A stretch of 64,000 nt of DNA from an uncultured Chitinophagaceae bacterium (GTDB lineage: Bacteria > Bacteroidota > Ignavibacteria > UBA10030 > UBA8401). Positions 3,486 to 63,217 of this stretch are shown here, one piece after another. Positions within the stretch are counted from its first letter, which is position 1, and every line of letters starts with the position of its first letter. The stretch lies in the NCBI GenBank assembly GCA_964439265.1, contig CAYTOA010000001.1, forward strand, positions 133,236 to 197,235, written 5' to 3'. Position numbers and translations under genes: made by a program. A model generated the notes under the pieces. It saw nothing but the letters and a program-made list of their open reading frames with translations. It was not told the DNA's origin and did not search any database.

Positions 3486-4373
3486 TTATGATGCGGTCCG
3501 CGCCGTCAGCGTTTCCACTACGGTTCGTCGAGCGGCATCGATCGGAAATTTCATTCCAGTCCACAATTCAAACGCCTTTGCCCCCTGGTGAACGAACATC
3601 TCCACTCCGTTGACCGTTGCCGCCCCGTCCTCATTTGCCCTTCGCAGGAGCGCCGTTTCAATGGGGGTGTATATAATATCGAAAATTATTTGATGATTTA
3701 AAAATCGAATTCCAGCAGGGATCGGCAGGGCGTCGGTATTCGGCGTCATGCCGGCGGGGGTCGTGTTTATTACGAGTGTCGATTCTGCAATGACCGCCCG
3801 AAGGCGACGTTCATCTGAAATATTGTCATAAACGACGTGGTGAAAAAGATTCCGGAACTCGCCGGTTAACTTCTCTGCTCGGGCAGCCGTCCTATTGTAG
3901 ATCTTCACCGAGGCAGGTGAGAAGTAATTTGATACTGAATATGCCGCAGCCCGTGCGCCTCCTCCGGCGCCGAGGATGATAACCGGGGCTTTGCGGATTC
4001 TTTCTTTGAACGGGTCTAGAGACTGTTGGATCCCGGCGACATCGGTGTTGTAGCCGGTGAACTTGCCTTCGTGGTTGACAATTGTATTAACGGCGCCGAT
4101 CGTCGCCGCGTCGTGGTCCACGGCATCGAGCAATGGAATAATAACTTCTTTATAAGGGATAGTCACATTCACGCCCGCAGTCCCGACCTTTCGCAATGAC
4201 GCTATGAGTGCCGGAAGGAATTCGCCGGCAACGTCGAAGACGCCATAGGTGAACGGAATGCCGAGTTCTTTAATGGCTGCCGAGTGCATTGCCGGCGAAA
4301 GGGTATGCGCGATCGGGTGGCCGATGATGCCGAGGCGTTGGAGAGGCTGTAAATTCATGGCTGCGTTGGTCAA
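3486..4373 (-). CDS. aroE: Shikimate dehydrogenase
   Basis: 295 aa with GIIGHPIAHTLSPAMHS at the N-terminus, NVTIPYK, and the GAGGGARA NADP-binding loop. Confidence 0.92.
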   Translation of the reverse strand: MTNAAMNLQPLQRLGIIGHPIAHTLSPAMHSAAIKELGIPFTYGVFDVAGEFLPALIASLRKVGTAGVNVTIPYKEVIIPLLDAVDHDAATIGAVNTIVNHEGKFTGYNTDVAGIQQSLDPFKERIRKAPVIILGAGGGARAAAYSVSNYFSPASVKIYNRTAARAEKLTGEFRNLFHHVVYDNISDERRLRAVIAESTLVINTTPAGMTPNTDALPIPAGIRFLNHQIIFDIIYTPIETALLRRANEDGAATVNGVEMFVHQGAKAFELWTGMKFPIDAARRTVVETLTARTAS

Positions 4374-4444: not shown

Positions 4445-5869
4445 CTAGCGCTGGAGCAGCGAAGAGAACTCTTTGATCGACTTGACGCCAAGGAATTCAG
4501 TCTCGAACCTTTTGCGCAGGTCGCTCTGCAGCGCGAACGCCGATTTGAGGGAGTCGACGGCGTCCAGCATCTTCTTCATCACGAAAAGGACTTTTGCGCG
4601 CGTATAATATGCCTCTGCAAATTGCTGATTGAGCTCGATGCATCGGTTCAACGCTTTGAGCGCTTCTTTCAGGTATCCCAGCTCGAACAGCGTGTCGCCG
4701 TAGTCAAACCAGGCTTCGTAGTTCTTCTTGTCGAGCTGCACAACCATTTTGTAGCCGATCAGGCATTCACGGTATTTTCCCAGATTGTATTCGACGTCGG
4801 CTTTGGCGTACCAAAGTTCGGGGTAATCACGGCAGATTTCGAGTGCGCGATTGTAGTCCTGCAGGGCTTTTTTGTACTGTTCGAGCGTATCGTAACAGCT
4901 GCCGCGTCCGAAAAACGACTCGTAATGTTCGTTGTCGTATTTGATCGCCTGCGTGAAACATTTGATCGCTTCGGTATAATTTCCCAGTTCTTCGTATGCA
5001 TTTCCCATATTATGCCACGCCGGAACATCTTTCGATTCATGACGGAGTGTTTGAGAATAGCACTCTACCGCTTCGTGGAATTTTCCCATATTGGCAAACG
5101 CATTGCCTTTATTGTACCATGCTGCGCCGAAATCGTCCTTGATGGCAATACACATGTCATAGCTGTCTATCGAGCGGGCAAAATCACCAATCCGGTTCAG
5201 TACGATGCCGCGGTTGTACCATGCATTGTAATTGTAAGGGTCGAGGTTGAGATGTTCATCGTAGCATTTGAGAGAATCCTCCAGCCGGTCCATGAAGTCA
5301 TAGCAAAATCCAAGTTCGAACATCGCATCTTTGTTTTCTTTATTCTCTTTCAGCAGGAACTCAAAGATCTCAGCAGCTTCTTTGTACCGCTCAATTTTTT
5401 CGAGTGTCACAGCCTTATTGAAAAGGGCTTCTTCACTGCCGGGTTCAATCGACAGAGCTTTTTCAAAACTTTCGAGCGCTTCATCTACCCGGTTTGCATT
5501 ATCGAACGTTATGCCGAGGTTAATATATATCTCACATTCATTCGGATTGAGGCTCACAGCGTGTTCATAACATTCGATCGCGTCATCGTACCGGTACATG
5601 TTGTTCAAGATCATTCCCCTCCGTACCCACGCATCCGAGCTGTACGGCACAAACTCGATCAACTGGTCTGCAAAATGGAGCGCTTCTTCAAACTTTTCCT
5701 GTTCGAAGTAGAAATCGACGATCTCTTCAAGGGCCTCAATAGTGCGGATGCCATTCCCCCCCTTCTTGAGGATATCCTTGAAGCGCTCGATCTCCTCACT
5801 ACGGTCGTTACGCCGCGGGGGTTGGCCTCCTAACTCATCGTCGAAGCTGTCGGAATCCAAATGAGACAT
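4445..5869 (-). CDS. Tetratricopeptide-repeat protein
   Basis: 474 aa with about 10 tandem 34-aa TPR units (AWYNRGIVLNRIGDF..., AWYNKGNAFANMGKF..., AWHNMGNAYEELGNY...). Confidence 0.9.
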   Translation of the reverse strand: MSHLDSDSFDDELGGQPPRRNDRSEEIERFKDILKKGGNGIRTIEALEEIVDFYFEQEKFEEALHFADQLIEFVPYSSDAWVRRGMILNNMYRYDDAIECYEHAVSLNPNECEIYINLGITFDNANRVDEALESFEKALSIEPGSEEALFNKAVTLEKIERYKEAAEIFEFLLKENKENKDAMFELGFCYDFMDRLEDSLKCYDEHLNLDPYNYNAWYNRGIVLNRIGDFARSIDSYDMCIAIKDDFGAAWYNKGNAFANMGKFHEAVECYSQTLRHESKDVPAWHNMGNAYEELGNYTEAIKCFTQAIKYDNEHYESFFGRGSCYDTLEQYKKALQDYNRALEICRDYPELWYAKADVEYNLGKYRECLIGYKMVVQLDKKNYEAWFDYGDTLFELGYLKEALKALNRCIELNQQFAEAYYTRAKVLFVMKKMLDAVDSLKSAFALQSDLRKRFETEFLGVKSIKEFSSLLQR

Positions 5870-6791: not shown

Positions 6792-7319
6792 ATGAAACTC
6801 ACACCTCTTGATATAAAGAAACAGGAGTTCAAGAAGGTTCTTCGGGGATATGACCCGGTGGAGGTTGATTCATTCCTGGACATGATGTCCAATGAGTTCG
6901 CCGATCTGATGCGACAATCCAAAGAAATGAGCGGGCAACTCGTTGAATTTGAAACGCAGCTTCGCGATTACCGGCAGATGGAGAAGACGTTGCAGCAGAC
7001 ATTGATGCAGGCGCAGGAAGCCAGCGGCAGGTCGATCGAGAACTCGCGTAAAGAAGGGCAGTTGATTATCCAGGAGTCGGAGTTGAAAGCGAACCAGCTT
7101 CTAGACCGCGCACGGATGGAACTTTCCAGAACCAGGGAAGAGATCGCGAACCTCCGCTCGAAAAAAGAATCGATCGTCAGCCGGCTGAAAGTACTGCTGA
7201 ATTCAGAGATCGACCTGATCAAAGCGCTTGAGGTCGACGATGATGAATTGACGAGGGACTTGTCGAGAGGAACTGGGAAAGATTCGATAGAAATTGACGA
7301 GATTATTAAGAAGCTGTGA
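6792..7319 (+). CDS. DivIVA-domain cell-division protein
   Basis: 175 aa. N-terminus MKLTPLDIKKQEFKKVLRGYDPVEVDSFLD is followed by a coiled coil. It lies immediately downstream of yggS. Confidence 0.88.
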   Translation: MKLTPLDIKKQEFKKVLRGYDPVEVDSFLDMMSNEFADLMRQSKEMSGQLVEFETQLRDYRQMEKTLQQTLMQAQEASGRSIENSRKEGQLIIQESELKANQLLDRARMELSRTREEIANLRSKKESIVSRLKVLLNSEIDLIKALEVDDDELTRDLSRGTGKDSIEIDEIIKKL

Positions 7320-8334: not shown

Positions 8335-11300
8335 ATGTTCAAAGAGCTTACCGACAAAATCAGTTACTCCGGCGTCGAAAAGGAGATTCTCGCGTTTTGG
8401 GATGCGAACAAGATTTTTGAACAAAGCATTACTTCGCGTGAAGGAAGGCCGCAGTATACCTTTTATGAAGGCCCACCGACTGCAAATGGCCGTCCTGGTA
8501 TTCATCATGTGATGGCTCGCGCGCTTAAGGACATCGTGTGCCGATACAAAACGATGTCAGGATACCAGGTTCACCGCAAGGCGGGATGGGATACGCACGG
8601 ACTCCCCGTCGAGATCGAAGTTGAAAAGATGCTCGGCATCAAGCACAAAGACGATATCATCGCGTACGGGGTCGAGAAGTTCAACGAGGAATGCAGAAAG
8701 TCGGTTTGGAAGTACAAGACCGAATGGGAAACAATGACGCGCGAGATGGGGTACTGGGTGGATCTCGCGCATCCCTACATCACGTTCACGAACGAGTACA
8801 TGGAATCGGTGTGGTGGGCGCTGAAGCGTTATTTCGACGGCGGGATGATCTATAAAGGTTACAAGATCCAGCCGTACTGCCCGCGCTGCGAAACGCCGCT
8901 GTCATCTCACGAAGTTGCTCTCGGGTATAAAGATGTAAAGGATCCGAGCGTGTATGTGAAGATGAAGGTAAAAGGGGAGACAAACACATATTTTCTCGTT
9001 TGGACGACAACGCCCTGGACGCTCATTTCCAACGTCGCACTGGCAGTCCATCCGGCAATAGAGTACGTCAAAGTCGAATTGATGAGCGGCGAGGATGACG
9101 CCCTCGTCGGGACAGGGGAATTCTTTATCCTCGCAAAAGCACGGCTCGGAGTCTTGAAGGATAAATATAAAATTGTTGCGGAGTATACGGGAAGGGATCT
9201 GGCCGGAAAAGAATACGAACGACTCTTTAACTATCATCAAACAAAAGAAAGAGGCTGGTACGTCGTCGAAGCGGATTTTGTAACTACGGAAGACGGATCC
9301 GGCATTGTTCACATGGCACCGGCGTACGGCGAAGACGATTACCAGACGGGCCGCAAATATGGTCTTCCGACAATCCATCCCGTTAACAAGTCGGGCGAGT
9401 TTGATGAGACGGTCACCGACTATAAGGGCAAATTCGTCAAAGATGCAGACGCAGAAATAATACAGGATTTAAAGTCGCGTAACATTCTCTACAAAAAAGA
9501 AGCGTATCTTCACAGCTACCCGCATTGCTGGCGTTGTTCATCACCGCTCCTCTATTATGCGCGCGAGTCATGGTACATCAGTACGACGAAGTACGCGGCA
9601 AGAATGATCGAATTGAATAAACAGATCAACTGGATACCTTCGGAAACCGGTTCCGGCCGTTTCGGCAACTGGCTTGAAGAGAACAAAGATTGGGCCTTGT
9701 CGCGCGACCGCTACTGGGGAACGCCGCTCCCGATCTGGGTGTGCGAAAAATGCGGACACTTGAAATGTGTTGGCAGCATCGAAGAATTGAAACAAGGAAC
9801 TAATTTTCCGCAGCCGCTCGATTTGCATAAGCCGTCTGTCGACCCCGTAATGTTTACGTGCGAAAAATGCAGCGGCACAATGAAACGGACGCCCGAGCTT
9901 ATCGACGTCTGGTTCGATTCGGGCTCGATGCCGTTCGCACAATGGCACTATCCGTTCGAGAACAAAGAAACATTCAGTAAGGCGTATCCGGCAGATTTTA
10001 TTTCTGAAGGGATCGACCAGACCCGCGGGTGGTTCTACACACTTCATTCGATCGGAACATTTCTTTTCGACAAGCCGGCGTTCAAGAATTGTCTTGTCAA
10101 CGATCTGATCCTCGACAAGCAGGGACAGAAAATGTCCAAATCGAAGGGGAACACTGTCAATCCGTTCGAGCTCATCGAAAAGTACGGGGCCGACGCGACG
10201 CGCTGGTATCTTGTTTCCAACAGCCCGGTGTGGCGCCCGACATTATTCGATGAAGAGGGAATCGCGGAAGTTCAGCGGAAGTTCTTCAGCACGCTGGTCA
10301 ATACCTACTCCTTCTTTGCGCTCTACGCGAATATCGACGAGTTTGTCTATGACGAAACGAGGATTCCGGTCGCAGAACGGGCTGAAATCGACCGCTGGAT
10401 CCTATCTTCGCTCAACACGCTCATCCAGTCCTACATGCGATACATGGATGAATACGATATTATGAAAGCGGCCCGCGCCGTGAGCGACTTCACAATAGAC
10501 CAACTTTCTAATTGGTATGTTAGAAGGAACAGGCGGCGCTTTTGGAAGAGCGAAAAAGGAAGAGACAAGACTGCCGCGTATCAGACGTTGTATGAATGCC
10601 TGGTCGCCGTGACAAAATTGATGGCCCCGTTCGCACCGTTCCTTGCCGATGAATTGTACCGCGGCCTGAACTCGGTGACAAAGAGCGAGCCGTTTCAATC
10701 AGTTCATCTTTCAACCTTGGAAAAGGTCGAAGCTGACGTCATCGACCGGGAACTTGAAGACAGGATGGATCGCGCCGTTCGGATCGTAGGGATGGTTCGC
10801 GCAATGAGGATGAAGTCGAACCTTAAAGTACGGCAGCCGTTGACGAAGATCATCGTTCCGATTTCAGACGAAGAGCAAAAACAGACCATTCTGAAAATGG
10901 AGGGAGTGATCCTGGACGAGATCAACGTGAAAGCGATCGAGTTCGTCCACGATGAATCCGACATCGTCATCAAAAAGGCAAAACCGAATTTCAGAACTTT
11001 GGGACAGAAGTACGGCAAACAGGTGCAGGCCGTCGCGGCGAAAGTCCGCGAAATGACGGCGCAGGAGATCACCTCGCTTCAGAAGACTGGCGTCTTCGTC
11101 ATTCCGGTGAACGGCGATACGTTCTCCATATCGAAGGAGGACGTGGAAGTGCAGCACGAAGACCTTCACGGATGGCTTGTCGAATCGGATGCAGGATTGA
11201 CCGTCGCACTTGATACCGAAATTACCCCCCAGCTGCGAAATGAAGGATTCGCTCGAGAATTTGTCAACCGGGTGCAGAACATGAGGAAGGATGCCGGTTT

Positions 11301-12713: not shown

Positions 12714-12762
12714 TCCTTCTACCATTCCGGTCTCGGTGTCTCATGTGTGCGCGGATCCCGCA

Positions 12763-13713
12763 ATGAAACGCAAGTTCGACATTGTTGTACCCGCTGGGCA
12801 AAAAAAAGAACGCCTCGATGTGTATTTGACGTCGCACGTAGAGAACGCAACGCGCACAAAGGTCCAGGAAGCGATCCGCATCGGCGAAGTTGTAGTAGAT
12901 GGAAAGCAGGTAAAGTCAAGCCACGCGATAAGCCCTGGCGAGATCATCCACATCGAACTTTCCCGACCGGAACCGCCTGAAGTCCTCCCCGAAAACATTC
13001 CTCTCGATATTGTCTACGAAGACAAGTATCTCCTCGTCGTGAACAAACCCGCGGGCATGGTCACTCATCCGGCATACAAGAATTATTCCGGGACACTCGT
13101 GAACGCGCTGCTGTTTCATTCGCAGTCTCTTTCGAAGGCGCATCCTCTCCGTCCGGGCATCGTGCACCGGCTGGATAAAGACACCTCCGGATTGCTGGTC
13201 GTCGCAAAGGATGAAACGACGCACCAAAAACTCTCGCGGCAATTTGCCAACAAGACAACAGAACGAGAATACCGAGCGATCGTCTGGGGCGTATTCAAAA
13301 CTTCCGAAGGAATCATCGAAGCGCAGCTCGGCCGAAGTAAGAGCGACAGGAAGAAAGTTGCTGTGGTTAAAGAGGGGAAATACGCAGTGACTGAGTACGA
13401 AGTGATGGAACAGTTCACTTATCTTGCGCTGCTCCGGCTCCGCCTGCGGACGGGACGTACCCACCAAATTCGCGTTCATCTTGCGCATATTCATCATCCG
13501 GTTTTTGGAGATGAGACGTACGGCGGAAGAAAAATTACAGGAGTTGACGGCAAGAAGAAGGCAGAGGCCGCGAACCTTCTCGAAACAATATCACGCCAGG
13601 CACTTCATGCAAAGAAACTGGGGTTTGTACATCCGGCGACCAAAGAGTTCATGCGGTTCGATTCTGAATTGCCGGACGATATGAAAGGGATATTGGAGTT
13701 TCTGGAGAAATAA
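12763..13713 (+). CDS. rluD: RluA/RluD-family 23S rRNA pseudouridine synthase
   Basis: S4 domain (RLDVYLTSHV) plus the catalytic HRLDKDTSGLLVVAK and RTGRTHQIRVHL motifs. Start taken at MKRKFD. Confidence 0.9.
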   Translation: MKRKFDIVVPAGQKKERLDVYLTSHVENATRTKVQEAIRIGEVVVDGKQVKSSHAISPGEIIHIELSRPEPPEVLPENIPLDIVYEDKYLLVVNKPAGMVTHPAYKNYSGTLVNALLFHSQSLSKAHPLRPGIVHRLDKDTSGLLVVAKDETTHQKLSRQFANKTTEREYRAIVWGVFKTSEGIIEAQLGRSKSDRKKVAVVKEGKYAVTEYEVMEQFTYLALLRLRLRTGRTHQIRVHLAHIHHPVFGDETYGGRKITGVDGKKKAEAANLLETISRQALHAKKLGFVHPATKEFMRFDSELPDDMKGILEFLEK

Positions 13714-13715
13714 TC

Positions 13716-13773
13716 CCCTCACCCAGTCCTTCGGACATCCCACTCCCGAAAGGAGAGGGACTAAGGGTGAGGG
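13716..13773 (+). repeat. GC-rich nested-hairpin repeat, copy A (upstream of the DUF559 gene)
   Basis: Sequence CCCTCACCCAGTCCTTCGGACATCCCACTCCCGAAAGGAGAGGGACTAAGGGTGAGGG. Outer stem CCCTCACCC/GGGTGAGGG; inner stems AGTCC/GGACT and CTCC/GGAG. Confidence 0.8.
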
Positions 13774-13796
13774 AGCTACTAGCTCGGGGGGATCCA

Positions 13797-14174
13797 ATGG
13801 GGAAACGATTCATCTCTTCGTCTCAATTTTCAACAACGAAGGCCCGTGCGCTTCGTCGGACGATGACTCCGGCGGAAAAGAGGTTCTGGTTGCTGGTGAG
13901 GAACAATCATATGGGCGTTAAATTTCGGAGACAATTCTCCATCGGCCCTTACATTGTAGATTTCTTTTGTTTTTCTGCGAAATTGGTAGTAGAGCTGGAT
14001 GGGAGTCGGCATTTTACCAGAGAAGGGAAAGAACAAGATTTTCATCGCGGTCAATTTCTACAAGCGCTCGGGATCACGGTACTTCGGTTTTCGAACAAGG
14101 AATTTTTAGCGAATCAGGAGGGAGTGATGCGGCTGATTTGGGAAAGTTCGCACAAAAAGGATCCCTCACCCTGA
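13797..14174 (+). CDS. DUF559 (Vsr-like fold) endonuclease-domain protein
   Basis: ARALRRTMTPAEKRFWLLVR...FRRQFSIGPYIVDFFC...LVVELDGSRH...VLRFSNKE matches the DUF559 pattern I know. The track start at 13767 lies inside repeat A, so the ATG at 13797 is preferred. Confidence 0.8.
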   Translation: MGKRFISSSQFSTTKARALRRTMTPAEKRFWLLVRNNHMGVKFRRQFSIGPYIVDFFCFSAKLVVELDGSRHFTREGKEQDFHRGQFLQALGITVLRFSNKEFLANQEGVMRLIWESSHKKDPSP

Positions 14175-14196
14175 CCCTCTCCCTTTGGAAGAGGGA
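14163..14196 (+). repeat. GC-rich repeat, partial copy B (overlaps the DUF559 stop codon)
   Basis: CCCTCACCCTGACCCTCTCCCTTTGGAAGAGGGA, with hairpin CCCTCT/AGAGGG. Its 5' CCTCACCCT is complementary to AGGGTGAGG at 14292-14300. Confidence 0.7.
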
Positions 14197-14249
14197 ATTA
14201 TGTCGAGATTATTTCTTTAAATGATTATTTGCTGCTATTGGAAAAGTTT

Positions 14250-14300
14250 CCCTCTCCTTGGAGGAGAGGGATGTCCCGACGAAGTCGGGACAGGGTGAGG
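14250..14300 (-). repeat. GC-rich nested-hairpin repeat, copy C (inverted relative to copy A)
   Basis: The reverse complement reads CCTCACCCTGTCCCGACTTCGTCGGGACATCCCTCTCCTCCAAGGAGAGGG and aligns block by block with copy A. Internal perfect hairpins are CCCTCTCC/GGAGAGGG and GTCCCGAC-GAA-GTCGGGAC. Confidence 0.8.
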
Positions 14301-14308
14301 TTCTAATA

Positions 14309-15133
14309 TTACTTCTGAGATTTTTCTTCCAGACGGACCTTCTCGATGTTCGGAGTGAAAATTACCACAAACGCTTCCTCGAGCTTCACAAAATCCACCG
14401 CCGGTACAACTTCTACCCGCTTGAACAGACTGCCCGATATCTCGGTCACAGCGCCGACGACTCCTATCTTGATGTTCGGCGGAAATACATTGCTGTATTC
14501 CGACGTCACGATTGCATCCCCAGTACGGACGTCGAGCGACTTTGCGATATTCTTCAGCATGACGGACCTGCCGTCCCACGCGATGATGCCGTCAACCCTG
14601 CTTCGCTGGACTTTGGCGCTTGCCCGAAAGTCTGCGTTGAGCATCGCCTGGCAGACTGAATAGTCTCCGCTGACAGCGATCACCCTTCCGACTAGCCCCT
14701 CGCCGGTGACCACGGGCATCCCGACTGCAACGCCGTCGTTTTCACCGATGTTCATCGTCAGCGTATTCCGTAGAAGGTTGAGATTCTTTGCAACGATCTT
14801 CCCGGCGATGAGCTTTGTTGTCGTTGTTTCTTTCAATGCGATCATGGAGCGGAGGCGCATGTTCTCTAGCCGCGCCTCCCGAAGTTGATTGACTTCATCG
14901 GCGAGGTTCACATTCATTTTTCGCAGCATTTCGTTCTCGCGCTCCATCTCGAAAACGTTCGGAATTACCGACACGGTGCTTTGGAAGGCGCCGACCATTC
15001 CCACCGCCAGCGAGCGAATACGCCGGACCTGTTCGTTATCATTCTGGGTGAGAAGGCCGATAGAGACGAGTACGAGGAAGGAAAAAATGATATACTCTTT
15101 GAAGAGAAAGTACAGTTGGTAGAGGCGCTGCAT
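14309..15133 (-). CDS. mreC: Rod shape-determining protein MreC
   Basis: 274 aa with an N-terminal TM helix, a coiled coil (ENEMLRKMNVNLADEVNQLRE) and a beta-barrel C-terminal region. It lies directly downstream of mreB. Confidence 0.9.
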   Translation of the reverse strand: MQRLYQLYFLFKEYIIFSFLVLVSIGLLTQNDNEQVRRIRSLAVGMVGAFQSTVSVIPNVFEMERENEMLRKMNVNLADEVNQLREARLENMRLRSMIALKETTTTKLIAGKIVAKNLNLLRNTLTMNIGENDGVAVGMPVVTGEGLVGRVIAVSGDYSVCQAMLNADFRASAKVQRSRVDGIIAWDGRSVMLKNIAKSLDVRTGDAIVTSEYSNVFPPNIKIGVVGAVTEISGSLFKRVEVVPAVDFVKLEEAFVVIFTPNIEKVRLEEKSQK

Positions 15134-61923: not shown

Positions 61924-63159
61924 ATGGATCAACTCCGCACGATCTTATCGGAATTTATTCTTGACCTGCGCATGCAAAAACTGCGCGTGTTCCTGACGGT
62001 ATTCGGCATCACCTGGGGAACAGTCGCTATCATCGTTCTCATCGCATTCGGGCTCGGTTTCAAAAAACAGCTCAGCACCAACATGCACGGCATCGGCGAA
62101 AGTATCTCCATCATGTTCCCCGGAAAAACGACGAAAGCGTACGAAGGGTTCGGTACCGGACGGCAAATTTCATTTGTGGAGGAAGATGCAAAGCTGGTCG
62201 CATCCCAGGTGCCGGGGGTTCGTGCGATCAGCCCGGAGTATATTAAATGGCGTGTGCCGGTACATGTCGGCGAAAATATTTTGAATCCCGCGATCACGGG
62301 GGTCTATCCCATCTATGCGGAAATGAGGAATATCATTCCCGAACCGGGGGGAAGATTCGTCGACGACCTCGATATGAAAGAGCGCAGAAGAGTAGTGCTG
62401 CTCGGCAACAAAGTGAAAGAATTTTTATTCGGCGAGACCGATGCAGTGGGAAGATTAATCTATGTCGCCGACGTCCCGTTTACGGTTATCGGCGTCATGC
62501 AGAAGAAGACGCAGAATTCTTCGTACCAGTCCCGGGACCAGGATCGGATTTTTATTCCAGCGTCGACCTACTCGTCGGTGTTCGGCGAGATCCATCTTAA
62601 GAATATGATCTTCCAGCCGAAAGATCCATCGAAAGCGGAGGAAGTGGACGACCAGGTGAGGGAGGTGCTTGGCAAACGATACCGGTTCGACCCGACCGAC
62701 CATGACGCCGTCTGGATCTGGGATACGAGCATGTTCGACAAGTTTCTTTTCTACTTTTTCCTTGCTTTCAACTTGTTCATGGGATTGATCGGGAGTTTCA
62801 CGCTGGCGGTCGGAGGTATCGGCGTTGCCAACATCATGTACATCGTCGTGCAGGAGAGGATAAAAGAGATCGGCATCAGGAGGGCGGTCGGCGCGAAGCG
62901 ATCGAATATTCTCTTTCAATTTTTTATGGAAACATTCTTCATCATCTCGATCGGTTCGTTTGCCGGCTTTGCGATCGCCTATGGCATCATACAGGCGATG
63001 CAGTTTATTCCCATCCAGGAATTTGTCGGAACACCGGTGCTCTCTCTGGAGGTGACGGCGGCTACCATTTTCGTCCTCTCCGTGATTGGCTTTACGGCAG
63101 GAGTTATGCCGGCGCGCCGCGCTGCGAACCTGGATGTTGTGGAATGCCTGAGAACCTGA
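61924..63159 (+). CDS. MacB-type ABC transporter permease (MacB_PCD + FtsX)
   Basis: 411 aa with an N-terminal TM helix (RVFLTVFGITWGTVAII), a periplasmic domain, and 3 C-terminal FtsX TM helices with EIGIRRAVGA. Confidence 0.9.
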   Translation: MDQLRTILSEFILDLRMQKLRVFLTVFGITWGTVAIIVLIAFGLGFKKQLSTNMHGIGESISIMFPGKTTKAYEGFGTGRQISFVEEDAKLVASQVPGVRAISPEYIKWRVPVHVGENILNPAITGVYPIYAEMRNIIPEPGGRFVDDLDMKERRRVVLLGNKVKEFLFGETDAVGRLIYVADVPFTVIGVMQKKTQNSSYQSRDQDRIFIPASTYSSVFGEIHLKNMIFQPKDPSKAEEVDDQVREVLGKRYRFDPTDHDAVWIWDTSMFDKFLFYFFLAFNLFMGLIGSFTLAVGGIGVANIMYIVVQERIKEIGIRRAVGAKRSNILFQFFMETFFIISIGSFAGFAIAYGIIQAMQFIPIQEFVGTPVLSLEVTAATIFVLSVIGFTAGVMPARRAANLDVVECLRT

Positions 63160-63183: not shown

Positions 63184-63217
63184 CCCCACCCTTAGTCCCT
63201 CTCCTTGCAGGGGAGGG
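63184..63217 (-). repeat. Solo copy (D) of the GC-rich repeat seen around the DUF559 gene
   Basis: CCCCACCCTTAGTCCCTCTCCTTGCAGGGGAGGG matches the reverse complement of 13744-13773 (CCCTCACCCTTAGTCCCTCTCCTTTCGGGAG). Confidence 0.75.

Follow-up and report, generated by a model that had tools for sequence, protein, structure and literature searches.

Short intergenic repeats described as BoxC, PIT or TMECO elements have been known in Escherichia coli since the 1990s, and to our knowledge they have no established origin, partner protein or function. The DUF559 protein family, whose E. coli member is YcjD, has a solved structure, and we know of no role assigned to it. Here we describe a 64,000-nucleotide stretch of DNA (hereafter the window) from an uncultured Chitinophagaceae bacterium (GTDB lineage Bacteroidota; Ignavibacteria; UBA10030; UBA8401; assembly GCA_964439265.1, contig CAYTOA010000001.1, positions 133,236 to 197,235, forward strand), in which a DUF559 gene between the core genes rluD and mreC is framed by inverted copies of such a repeat (13,716-14,300). 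The repeat family and the protein family, with its solved structure, are both known already; their association seems undescribed. We give a probability of roughly 55% to the reading that this locus is a widespread three-part module, composed of a triplex-type repeat, a DUF559 nuclease gene and an inverted repeat, in which the nuclease is proposed to act on its own repeats.

TMECO repeats follow the consensus CCCTCNCCC-N3-6-GGGNGAGGG-N3-GGGNGAGGG, with 23 copies in strain MG1655, and form a triplex in vitro as seen by circular dichroism and nuclear magnetic resonance, with a negative dimethyl sulphate footprint in vivo (PMC4666352). Repeats built on this triplex motif (TM) are widespread among bacteria, block polymerases and coincide with raised levels of rearrangement at the loci that carry them (PMC4666352). 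No transposase or integrase remnants were found near them by Holder et al. (2015), and the main text of that paper mentions neither DUF559, ycjD nor any endonuclease (PMC4666352). A second described element, the Rfam family whalefall-1 (RF01762), consists of two hairpins and a purine-rich tail with no conserved gene nearby (Weinberg et al. 2010), and is rated as a likely RNA, with covariation.

The original prediction held that the window contains four repeat copies (A, B, C and a solo copy), two of which, A and C, bracket a DUF559 open reading frame (ORF) as inverted copies. All four lie where it had placed them, and the gene and its two neighbours are confirmed by their Pfam matches. The features are as follows, with the module first.

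13716-13773, + strand: unit U1 (copy A), a closed repeat unit, in the order C-arm, hairpin hp1, hairpin hp2, loop, G-arm
13716-13724: C-arm of U1, CCCTCACCC
13726-13736: hp1 of U1, GTCC-TTC-GGAC
13738-13760: hp2 of U1, TCCCACTCC-CGAAA-GGAGAGGGA
13765-13773: G-arm of U1, GGGTGAGGG, preceded by the loop CTAA
13797-14174, + strand: gene for a DUF559/YcjD-like, predicted Vsr-fold endonuclease (PF04480), 125 aa from the ATG, stop codon at 14172-14174
14163-14196, + strand: copy B, the inner half of unit U2, with its TM on the minus strand and the arm directed at the gene
14163-14171: C-arm of copy B, CCCTCACCC, followed by the TGA (14172-14174) that is the DUF559 stop codon
14175-14183: C-block of copy B, CCCTCTCCC, then the loop TTTG and the G-block GAAGAGGG at 14188-14195
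14197-14248: AT-rich spacer of ~52 nt between the two hp2 copies of U2
14249-14300, + strand: copy C, the outer half of U2, in the order hp2, hp1, G-arm
14249-14271: hp2 of copy C, TCCCTCTCCT-TGG-AGGAGAGGGA
14273-14291: hp1 of copy C, GTCCCGAC-GAA-GTCGGGAC, with an 8-bp stem
14293-14300: G-arm of copy C, GGGTGAGG
63184-63217, + strand: solo TM-type copy, C-arm CCCCACCC, TTAGT, CCCTCTCC-TTGCA-GGGGAGGG
12736-13713, + strand: RluD-type pseudouridine synthase gene, left flank, outside the module (Pfam PseudoU_synth_2 3.7e-36, plus S4)
14309-15133, - strand: mreC, right flank, outside the module (Pfam MreC 1.6e-37)

The rluD stop codon lies 2 nt 5' of U1 and the mreC stop codon 8 nt past the G-arm of copy C. 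Within U1, the G-block of hp2 and the G-arm constitute a TM whose arm is directed at the DUF559 gene. Each block of copy C is the reverse complement of its counterpart in U1 (inverted pairs I1 and I6), and, as had been predicted, the G-arm of C can pair with the C-arm of B (I5; 14 nt, 93% complementary). Unit U2 is a U1-type unit, inverted and split into B and C. Copy B was also expected to abut the DUF559 stop codon; the position holds, but B overlaps the stop rather than merely abutting it, and the C-terminal codons D-P-S-P-stop come from its C-arm and first loop. The same junction of C-arm, TGA and C-block recurs in six further loci (L007, L009, L030, L066, L068 and L130). An alternative GTG start lies at 13767, upstream of the ATG.

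As single-stranded DNA, copy A forms two hairpins enclosed by an outer stem of 9 bp (-18.3 kcal/mol, z = -4.3, equalled by 0 of 200 shuffles), copy C folds at -20.1 kcal/mol (z = -6.2) and the entire stretch from B to C at -31.3 kcal/mol (z = -6.5). The solo copy alone does not fold significantly better than its shuffles (z = -1.4); it has no DUF559 gene nearby and lies 25 nt 3' of the stop codon of a gene ending at 63159, with a T-run, AAATTTTT, coming next. Read in the direction of the gene that precedes it, every window copy comes after a stop codon, be it that of rluD, DUF559, mreC or the gene ending at 63159. The window contains 8 occurrences of the word GGAGAGGG, where 1.7 would be expected, a count that 0 of 100 shuffles attained, and all four occurrences of CCTCACCC are at the DUF559 locus, whilst the window contains no hairpins of opposite (G-to-C) polarity.

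In their words and block order, the copies resemble the E. coli repeats. Copy A fits the TM order (CCCACTCC / CGAAA / GGAGAGGG / ACTAA / GGGTGAGGG), as do copy B and the solo copy on the other strand, and against the TMECO consensus the window copies use the same words with one block mismatch and a second loop of 5 nt (A) or containing hp1 (C) rather than of 3 nt. A TM comprises a C-block, a complementary G-block and a G-arm that mirrors the latter, on either strand, with short loops (1-6 nt in ITxF); copy C, with the 21-nt hp1 in loop 2, goes beyond this loop limit. Shared with BoxC/PIT/TMECO are the words CCCTCTCC(C), loop, GG(G)AGAGGG, short loop and GGGTGAGGG, an arm that mirrors the G-block, and an intergenic distribution, single or paired as inverted doublets, with ~20 copies in an E. 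coli genome, one of which, TMECO #9, adjoins ycjD. In contrast, most units described here add hp1 in the second loop, often with a C-arm and G-arm closing a three-way junction, and published TMECO work reports no associated gene. By its sequence design, the repeat is assigned to the described BoxC/PIT/TMECO intrastrand-triplex family.

Copy C also resembles whalefall-1, although its score of 28.9 bits falls short of the gathering score (37), with E ranging from 5e-6 to 3e-5 according to the search space. The alignment spans the full model, including the tail AGGGUGAGG, and in the whalefall-1 seed the tail changes together with the first hairpin, whose mirror it is. Whalefall-1 itself is described as a non-coding RNA, from a whale-fall metagenome only and with no conserved neighbouring gene. 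Rfam searches at gathering thresholds of 14 diverse DUF559 loci returned one tRNA only, so that no curated RNA family covers the lineage-specific forms of the repeat.

The window protein, which is also called as an exact 125-aa product on two JGI metagenome contigs, matches PF04480 at E = 4.8e-34 (117 bits, cut-off 20.6; aligned from position 4 to 106 of the 109 in the profile), with Pfam matches limited to DUF559, MTES_1575 and DUF2726, and it carries EDxHD-type residues (VELDGSRH...D). A profile built from 33 diverse DUF559 cores retrieved from the PDB both 3hrl (NGO0050, 'endonuclease-like protein'; E = 4.9e-34) and 3r3p (catalytic domain of I-Bth0305I, an EDxHD homing endonuclease; E = 3.9e-4), and the AlphaFold2 model of the window protein (predicted local distance difference test score, pLDDT, 85.7) matched the same structures in Foldseek with template-modelling scores of 0.87 and 0.76, respectively. 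Weaker Foldseek matches were to the nuclease domains of PvuRts1I and AbaSI and to large mitoribosomal proteins that we regard as members of the RAP-domain (FASTK-like) group; a Pfam scan and the model revealed no separate DNA-binding domain. Across the 33 sequences, E44, D46, H50 and D59 (core numbering) are invariant, and these are the residues of the EDxHD motif of Taylor et al. (2011). Consistent with the Vsr-like fold originally proposed, these profile and model matches identify the window protein as a DUF559/YcjD-like predicted Vsr-fold endonuclease. The family is very large (1609 proteins at E <= 1e-5 in our homologue search), and among the matches listed for literature mentioning DUF559, none reported an activity for it.

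The association of this gene with the repeat proved to be general rather than a local accident. We assembled 80 DUF559 loci, one genome per species, using the core patterns GPYIVDFx[CA] and [GD]VKFRRQx[PS]I from an alignment of 10 sequences; to avoid circularity, tail residues were excluded from the patterns and homologues were trimmed to the nuclease core. These loci spanned Bacteroidota, Chloroflexota, Alpha-, Beta-, Gamma- and Deltaproteobacteria, Patescibacteria, Nitrospirota, Nitrospinota, Planctomycetota, Acidobacteriota, Actinomycetota, Bacillota, WOR-3 and others. Hairpins were counted if they had a perfect stem of at least 6 bp with C-to-G polarity, a C-rich 5' arm that reads alike on both strands, and hairpins of G-to-C polarity (G-rich 5' arm) served as a built-in control. 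In the 100-nt bins adjoining DUF559, C-to-G hairpins reached 6.1-6.3 per kb, compared with 0.14 per kb at distances of 1 kb or more and 0.07 per kb in coding DNA, whilst G-to-C hairpins ranged from 0.03 to 0.6 per kb. When non-coding DNA was considered separately, the density was 5.63 per kb beside DUF559 and 0.65 per kb in the 309 other segments of the same loci (~9x), only 8.4% of which contained a hairpin. A hairpin was present within 250 nt of the gene in 66 of the 80 loci, and on both sides in 43. The opposite-polarity control, the other non-coding segments and the window shuffles together rule out chance or base composition as the source of this enrichment.

The association was also recovered in the reverse direction, since 14 of the 29 hairpins in 272 kb of DNA fetched with MreC lay within 350 nt of a DUF559 gene, a zone that makes up 3% of that DNA. 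Three of the other 15 hairpins were repeat-type, namely two in L008, whose contig ends within the repeat region, and the solo unit of L014, and most of the rest were weak 6-bp stems without repeat words. In many phyla, the ORFs of homologues run into the repeat, giving rise to the tails PSPLVPLPTGEG, PSPLVPLPTGEGCPKD, PSPxPSPxGRG, HPNLPPEGEG and LPRKRGRE. Public DUF559 gene calls are often extended into the repeat at either end (P0002, P0003, P0008, P0010, P0012, P0016, P0023, P0038 and many more), producing artefactual low-complexity tails of the form PSP..PLP..GEG, and P0107 is even named as a BirA-family repressor/ligase. Overall, comparison of these loci shows DUF559 genes and BoxC/TM-type repeats as a conserved, co-inherited module in some twenty bacterial phyla and classes.

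The design of the repeat was similarly constant. Each hairpin has a C-rich 5' stem and a G-rich 3' stem, together with an arm mirroring the stem, and a second small hairpin often lies between them. The arm is a mirror copy of the G-block in which A and T are interchangeable; for 74 of 155 asymmetric G-blocks in the 80 loci, a mirror-only arm was found within 60 nt, and a direct-only arm for none. This mirror-arm rule is, by its symmetry, the expected signature of an intrastrand purine-motif triplex. Stem words vary by lineage and the arm varies along with them: CCCTCTCC is found in the window's clade, E. coli and Thermoanaerobaculia, CCCCTCC in Hymenobacter, Chloroflexia and Nitrospirales, CCCTCCC in Alphaproteobacteria, and CCCCC in Pedobacter and Nitrospinaceae. 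The loops of the upstream and downstream hairpins are reverse-complementary in many loci (CTTGA/TCAAG, GCCA/TGGC, GTGTCTT/AAGACAC and others), and the flanks of DUF559 are therefore true inverted repeats. They are arranged predominantly with the arms facing inwards ([hairpin, G-arm] - gene - [C-arm, hairpin]), in 23-24 cases against 2-3 with the opposite layout. The start codon of several loci directly follows the G-arm, and several ORFs continue across the C-arm, which supplies a ...PSP tail, to end at a TGA in the first loop.

Gene-less copies are also frequent. The 80 loci contain 205 TM-type units, of which 58 lie more than 500 nt from DUF559, and doublets occur in both layouts. Hymenobacter rigui (L083) carries five arms-in doublets with ~55-nt spacers within 10 kb (1018-1159, 4785-4904, 5339-5459, 6994-7114 and 8886-8999), two of which stand on either side of the DUF559 gene; the doublets make up a very dense REPIN-like population in this genome.

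Where the repeats sit relative to genes is compatible with another explanation, in which they are transcript-level or expression-control elements (a 3'-end hairpin, terminator, mRNA stabilizer, 5' leader occluding the ribosome-binding tract, or small RNA like whalefall-1) that insulate or regulate a potentially toxic nuclease gene, with solo copies arising independently of the protein. Every window copy follows a stop codon and the solo copy is followed by a T-run, E. coli keeps its repeats in genomes without ycjD, the fold relatives of the nuclease include presumed RAP-domain RNA-binding proteins, whalefall-1 is rated as a likely RNA, and the G-arm near the start codon of several loci resembles a Shine-Dalgarno tract, a likeness that Weinberg et al. 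remarked upon for whalefall-1. The mirror-arm rule (74 to 0), however, serves no role in a terminator or simple hairpin, and purine-motif triplexes do not form in RNA, according to literature cited in PMC4666352, which also summarizes PIT elements as lacking promoter or terminator activity in E. coli. Nor is the motif a general 3'-end signal, being present in so few of the other non-coding segments, whilst inverted repeats stand on both sides of the gene and blocks of homology end at the repeat. We consider this explanation unlikely.

That homology ends at the repeats was evident from pairs of loci with unrelated surroundings. On two contigs of one Ignavibacteriales metagenome-assembled genome (MAG; L075 and L077), the gene and downstream repeat are 86% identical over 463 nt with unrelated flanks, and the upstream hairpin provides a separate 30-nt match. 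In two Maricaulis genomes (L085 and L134), homology is confined to 4881-5390, from the upstream hairpin to the downstream hairpin. Module-only homology with unrelated flanks was also found among Hymenobacter loci (L123/L137 and L081/L083) and across phyla, between a Janthinobacterium MAG (L078) and Hymenobacter (L123/L137), with 73-78% protein identity. Other pairs (L081/L102, L107/L128, L088/L121 and L098/L118) were syntenic over the full 10 kb. Since homology stops at the outer repeat edges, gene and repeats behave as one inherited, occasionally relocating unit, and these alignments show that the module has moved within and between genomes as a block bounded by repeats. Protein and repeat also co-vary, with cross-taxon pairs that share stem words having a protein identity of 48.5%, versus 46.2% (0 of 2000 permutations as high), and stem words shared in 19 of the 25 most similar cross-taxon pairs. 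Paired DUF559 genes were observed in L073 (5001-5276 and 5521-5796) and L133 (3828-4106 and 5001-5243); in the L073 tandem, the start of the second gene and the preceding non-coding stretch repeat those of the first, repeat arm included.

Co-variation of this kind bears on the idea of passive co-location, whereby TM repeats are recombination hot spots that trap small horizontally acquired genes and DUF559 is merely a common passenger. TM loci are indeed prone to rearrangement, cas9 and a further insert have entered the rluD-mreC junction in relatives, and the site of ycjD in E. coli holds eefRABCD in other phylogroups. Yet the tie appears specific, as a scan of the 80 loci for other ORFs between hairpin pairs yielded six weak candidates and no convincing second cargo gene, and a trap would not explain why protein similarity follows the repeat words or why the layout, with arms facing inwards and the stop codon in the first loop, is conserved across phyla. 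We therefore regard passive co-location as highly improbable. The sole hint of another small gene framed like DUF559 is an ORF in L130 (3201-3554, - strand; MTISVTELKARLLEIIREVERDQKAVEIERHGRVVARLIP...), which by eye resembles a Phd/YefM-type antitoxin; it has a C-to-G hairpin on each side and is ~500 nt away from the DUF559 module. Phage carriage as the main route of dispersal was ruled out, with only 11 loci recovered from 2.9 million viral contigs, most of them without the repeat.

The history of the module at its own junction was compared across 65 loci that were recovered with MreC from a metagenome scan. The states observed were as follows, with MreC identities in brackets.

L015, L017, L019, L021 and L062 (outgroups; MreC 61-64%): junction of 24-34 nt with neither repeat nor DUF559
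L003, L004, L009 and L030, also L149-L151 (MreC 79-96%): module present
L014 (MreC 92%): 65-nt junction with one solo unit (hp1 and hp2), gene absent
L010 (MreC 81%): unrelated spacer of 135 nt
L011 (MreC 78%): other neighbouring gene
L005 (MreC 91%): half repeat fused to the final ~33 codons of the DUF559 gene
L007 (MreC 80%): DUF559 gene N-terminally truncated
L006 (MreC 91%) and L068: DUF559 gene broken by another insert

Gene-less junctions exist in relatives, but a target-site duplication was not definable, nor was an exact insertion point, because the junctions compared are too diverged. The solo unit of L014 could, from its sequence, be either a pre-insertion state or a deletion product; as L014 nests inside the gene-carrying clade, secondary loss is favoured. 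The downstream unit of L012 is closed and undivided, running C-arm, hp2, hp1, G-arm without the ~52-nt spacer, and the arrangement of B, spacer and C in the window is therefore derived. The upstream unit occurs in both orientations, with L003 differing from the window, L004 and L009, and across the junction relatives the hairpin stems are conserved whilst the loops vary.

All three of the closest DUF559 homologues (73-76% identity) are found at the rluD-mreC junction, where orthologues span 65-77% amino acid identity. Their pairwise ratio of nonsynonymous to synonymous divergence (dN/dS) is 0.04-0.44 with a median of ~0.14, compared with 0.02-0.08 for mreC and 0.03-0.085 for rluD, and synonymous divergence (dS) is alike for the three genes. 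With dS similar to that of its neighbours and dN/dS of ~0.14, DUF559 is long-resident in the clade; the substitution patterns identify it as an old gene that has been inherited vertically under relaxed, though still purifying, selection and that occasionally decays or is lost. The shared junction of the three homologues and the neighbour-like dS rule out recent insertion or homing in this clade.

A gene retained in this way might alternatively benefit its host as a structure-specific repair nuclease with Vsr-like nicking, clearing triplex or hairpin replication blocks and lesions and linked to the repeats by joint acquisition or selection, without spreading them. The Vsr-like fold, the purifying selection and long vertical residence, the single-copy state in E. 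coli and the ability of TMs to stall polymerases, with their link to instability, would all suit such a function. A trans-acting enzyme, however, needs no framing by its substrates with start and stop codons embedded in them, and the module-confined homology in congeners and the frequent decay or loss better fit a dispensable, semi-selfish unit, such that we regard a repair role as improbable.

Other elements were observed at the same junction. In L030 (1379-3502, + strand) and L006 (from 4545, + strand), whose MreC sequences are 91-93% identical, a cas9 gene replaces rluD beside the DUF559 module; its N-terminus reads MARILGLDLGTNSIGWA, it matches the Pfam Cas9 alpha-helical lobe domain at 2.4e-12, and a hairpin and T-run lie just upstream. 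The junction is evidently a site of foreign DNA uptake. The inserts that break DUF559 in L006 (~3900-4060) and L068 (~4850-5000) are unrelated to the gene and share a perfect terminator-like hairpin, AAAAATCCCGTTCGGTGAATAACCGG(T/A)CGGGATTTTT, and may represent another small mobile element that targets or disrupts the DUF559 gene.

The module can be recognized in E. coli K-12. The DUF559 gene ycjD (1,351,407-1,351,760, minus strand, NC_000913.3; L148) encodes an ORF that ends ..SPSP-stop inside the C-block CACCCTCTCCCTGA, and TMECO #9 (CCCTCGCCCCTCTGGGGAGAGGGTTAGGGTGAGGGG, 1,351,204-1,351,239) lies 168 nt from it, upstream of fabI (formerly envM). The Bergler citation is reportedly to the study that sequenced envM and first drew attention to BoxC. 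Holder et al. 2015 (PMC4666352) use the terms 'Bergler' and 'envM' one time each. Beyond ycjD, ~45 nt downstream, we observed a partial duplicate of the gene's 3' end (1,351,290-1,351,365, or ~4290-4365 in L148; GGAGACGGTGCTGGAGAATATTC...CTGAACCG...), followed by a remnant, GAAAGGGTTAGGGG, and farther on by TMECO #9; this suggests a former tandem copy or slipped recombination at the repeat. Four of the five TM doublets in E. coli are arms-in with spacers of 16-27 nt, the layout of DUF559 flanks minus the gene. A 56-mer around TMECO #9 is present in all 5426 complete E. coli genomes, at a median of 19 places per genome, whilst ycjD is single-copy and present in 3378, its sapF-fabI site being filled by eefRABCD where it is absent. 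As every genome carries the repeat and only these carry ycjD, the repeats have outlasted the gene, at least since the divergence of the phylogroups.

Among described mobile systems, the module can be likened to repetitive extragenic palindromic (REP) elements and REPINs with their RAYT transposases. Both combine a usually single-copy gene, framed by inverted, dispersed palindromic repeats, with gene-less intergenic singlets and doublets, mostly vertical inheritance with occasional loss, and repeat sequences that co-vary with the protein lineage. Unlike RAYTs, which are HUH Y1 transposases, the enzyme here has a predicted PD-(D/E)xK/Vsr fold and its action on the repeats is only proposed, and the repeats add mirror (triplex) symmetry to the hairpin. 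The original suggestion of a REP-like mobile unit accordingly stands in part: the locus behaves as one inherited unit with occasional relocation and REP-like scattering of gene-less copies, but the repeat itself is not new and the module is not a recent insertion in this lineage.

The catalytic domain of the family is homologous to that of EDxHD homing endonucleases and Vsr, the residues E, D, H and D being conserved, and free-standing EDxHD members exist (Taylor et al. 2011). DUF559 proteins differ in being ~120 aa long without an N-terminal NUMOD/helix-turn-helix region, in lacking an intron or intein location and, in the window's clade, in showing no fast cycle of invasion and loss. Resemblance to insertion sequences (IS) and miniature inverted-repeat transposable elements extends to inverted repeats bounding a homology block and to arms-in doublets that look like gene-less modules, whereas no transposase domain or fold is present, no target-site duplication is recognizable at the compared junctions, gene copy number is low and paralogues are diverged (86% identity). 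Membership in the RAYT, IS or EDxHD homing families is ruled out, as each has defining features that this module lacks. The literature that could be searched, which leaves out most subscription journals, yielded no paper joining the gene family and the repeat, and the partnership, of which the original prediction likewise knew no description, seems undescribed.

Under the proposed three-part module, the mechanism may be envisaged as follows. The ~120-aa, Mg-dependent Vsr/EDxHD-type endonuclease would recognize its own repeat once folded as a hairpin, three-way junction or triplex, the fold being extruded from single-stranded or supercoiled DNA, and would nick the folded DNA or its immediate surroundings. 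Nicking of both inverted ends, or of other copies, would create recombinogenic ends through which the module or bare repeats could be copied to new sites in a REP/RAYT- or homing-like manner, and which could also account for the genome instability reported at TM repeats. We infer that the nuclease would act on the repeats in this way.

Several observations weigh against this proposal. The closest fold relatives of the nuclease also take in what are presumably RNA-binding RAP domains. The position of repeats just 3' of stop codons, with a T-run after the solo copy, could also fit a transcript-level role. Although a perfect hairpin accompanies most of the 80 loci, 14 lack one, several of these having imperfect or long-loop versions, and distant DUF559 relatives on viral contigs (36-43% identity) are mostly without repeats. 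Movement must be rare in the window's clade, where the gene is fixed at one junction with neighbour-like dS, and the relocation examples L075/L077 and L078 depend on MAG binning. In E. coli, the repeats are kept in every genome though 38% are without ycjD.

Taken together, the association points to DUF559 as the missing partner enzyme of the BoxC/triplex repeat family. A further-reaching possibility, which we put forward only tentatively, is that DUF559/YcjD proteins are structure-specific nucleases for folded BoxC/TM repeats and make up, with the repeats, another REP/RAYT-like system of separate evolutionary origin. Such a system would rest on a Vsr-fold nuclease and non-B DNA, would occur in E. 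coli K-12 and some twenty phyla and classes, and would lie behind both the spread of the repeats and the genome instability seen at them. For genome annotation, the consequence is that many DUF559 gene models bear spurious PSP...GEG tails that are translated repeat. For biology, two orphans, the BoxC/PIT/TMECO repeats and the DUF559 family, are joined, and each gains a concrete hypothesis that is directly testable in E. coli K-12, which has ycjD and 23 TMECO copies. If the nuclease does act on the repeats, it would represent a new enzyme class for symbioses between repeat and gene of the REP/RAYT kind, and would join the few proteins whose target in vivo is triplex or hairpin DNA.

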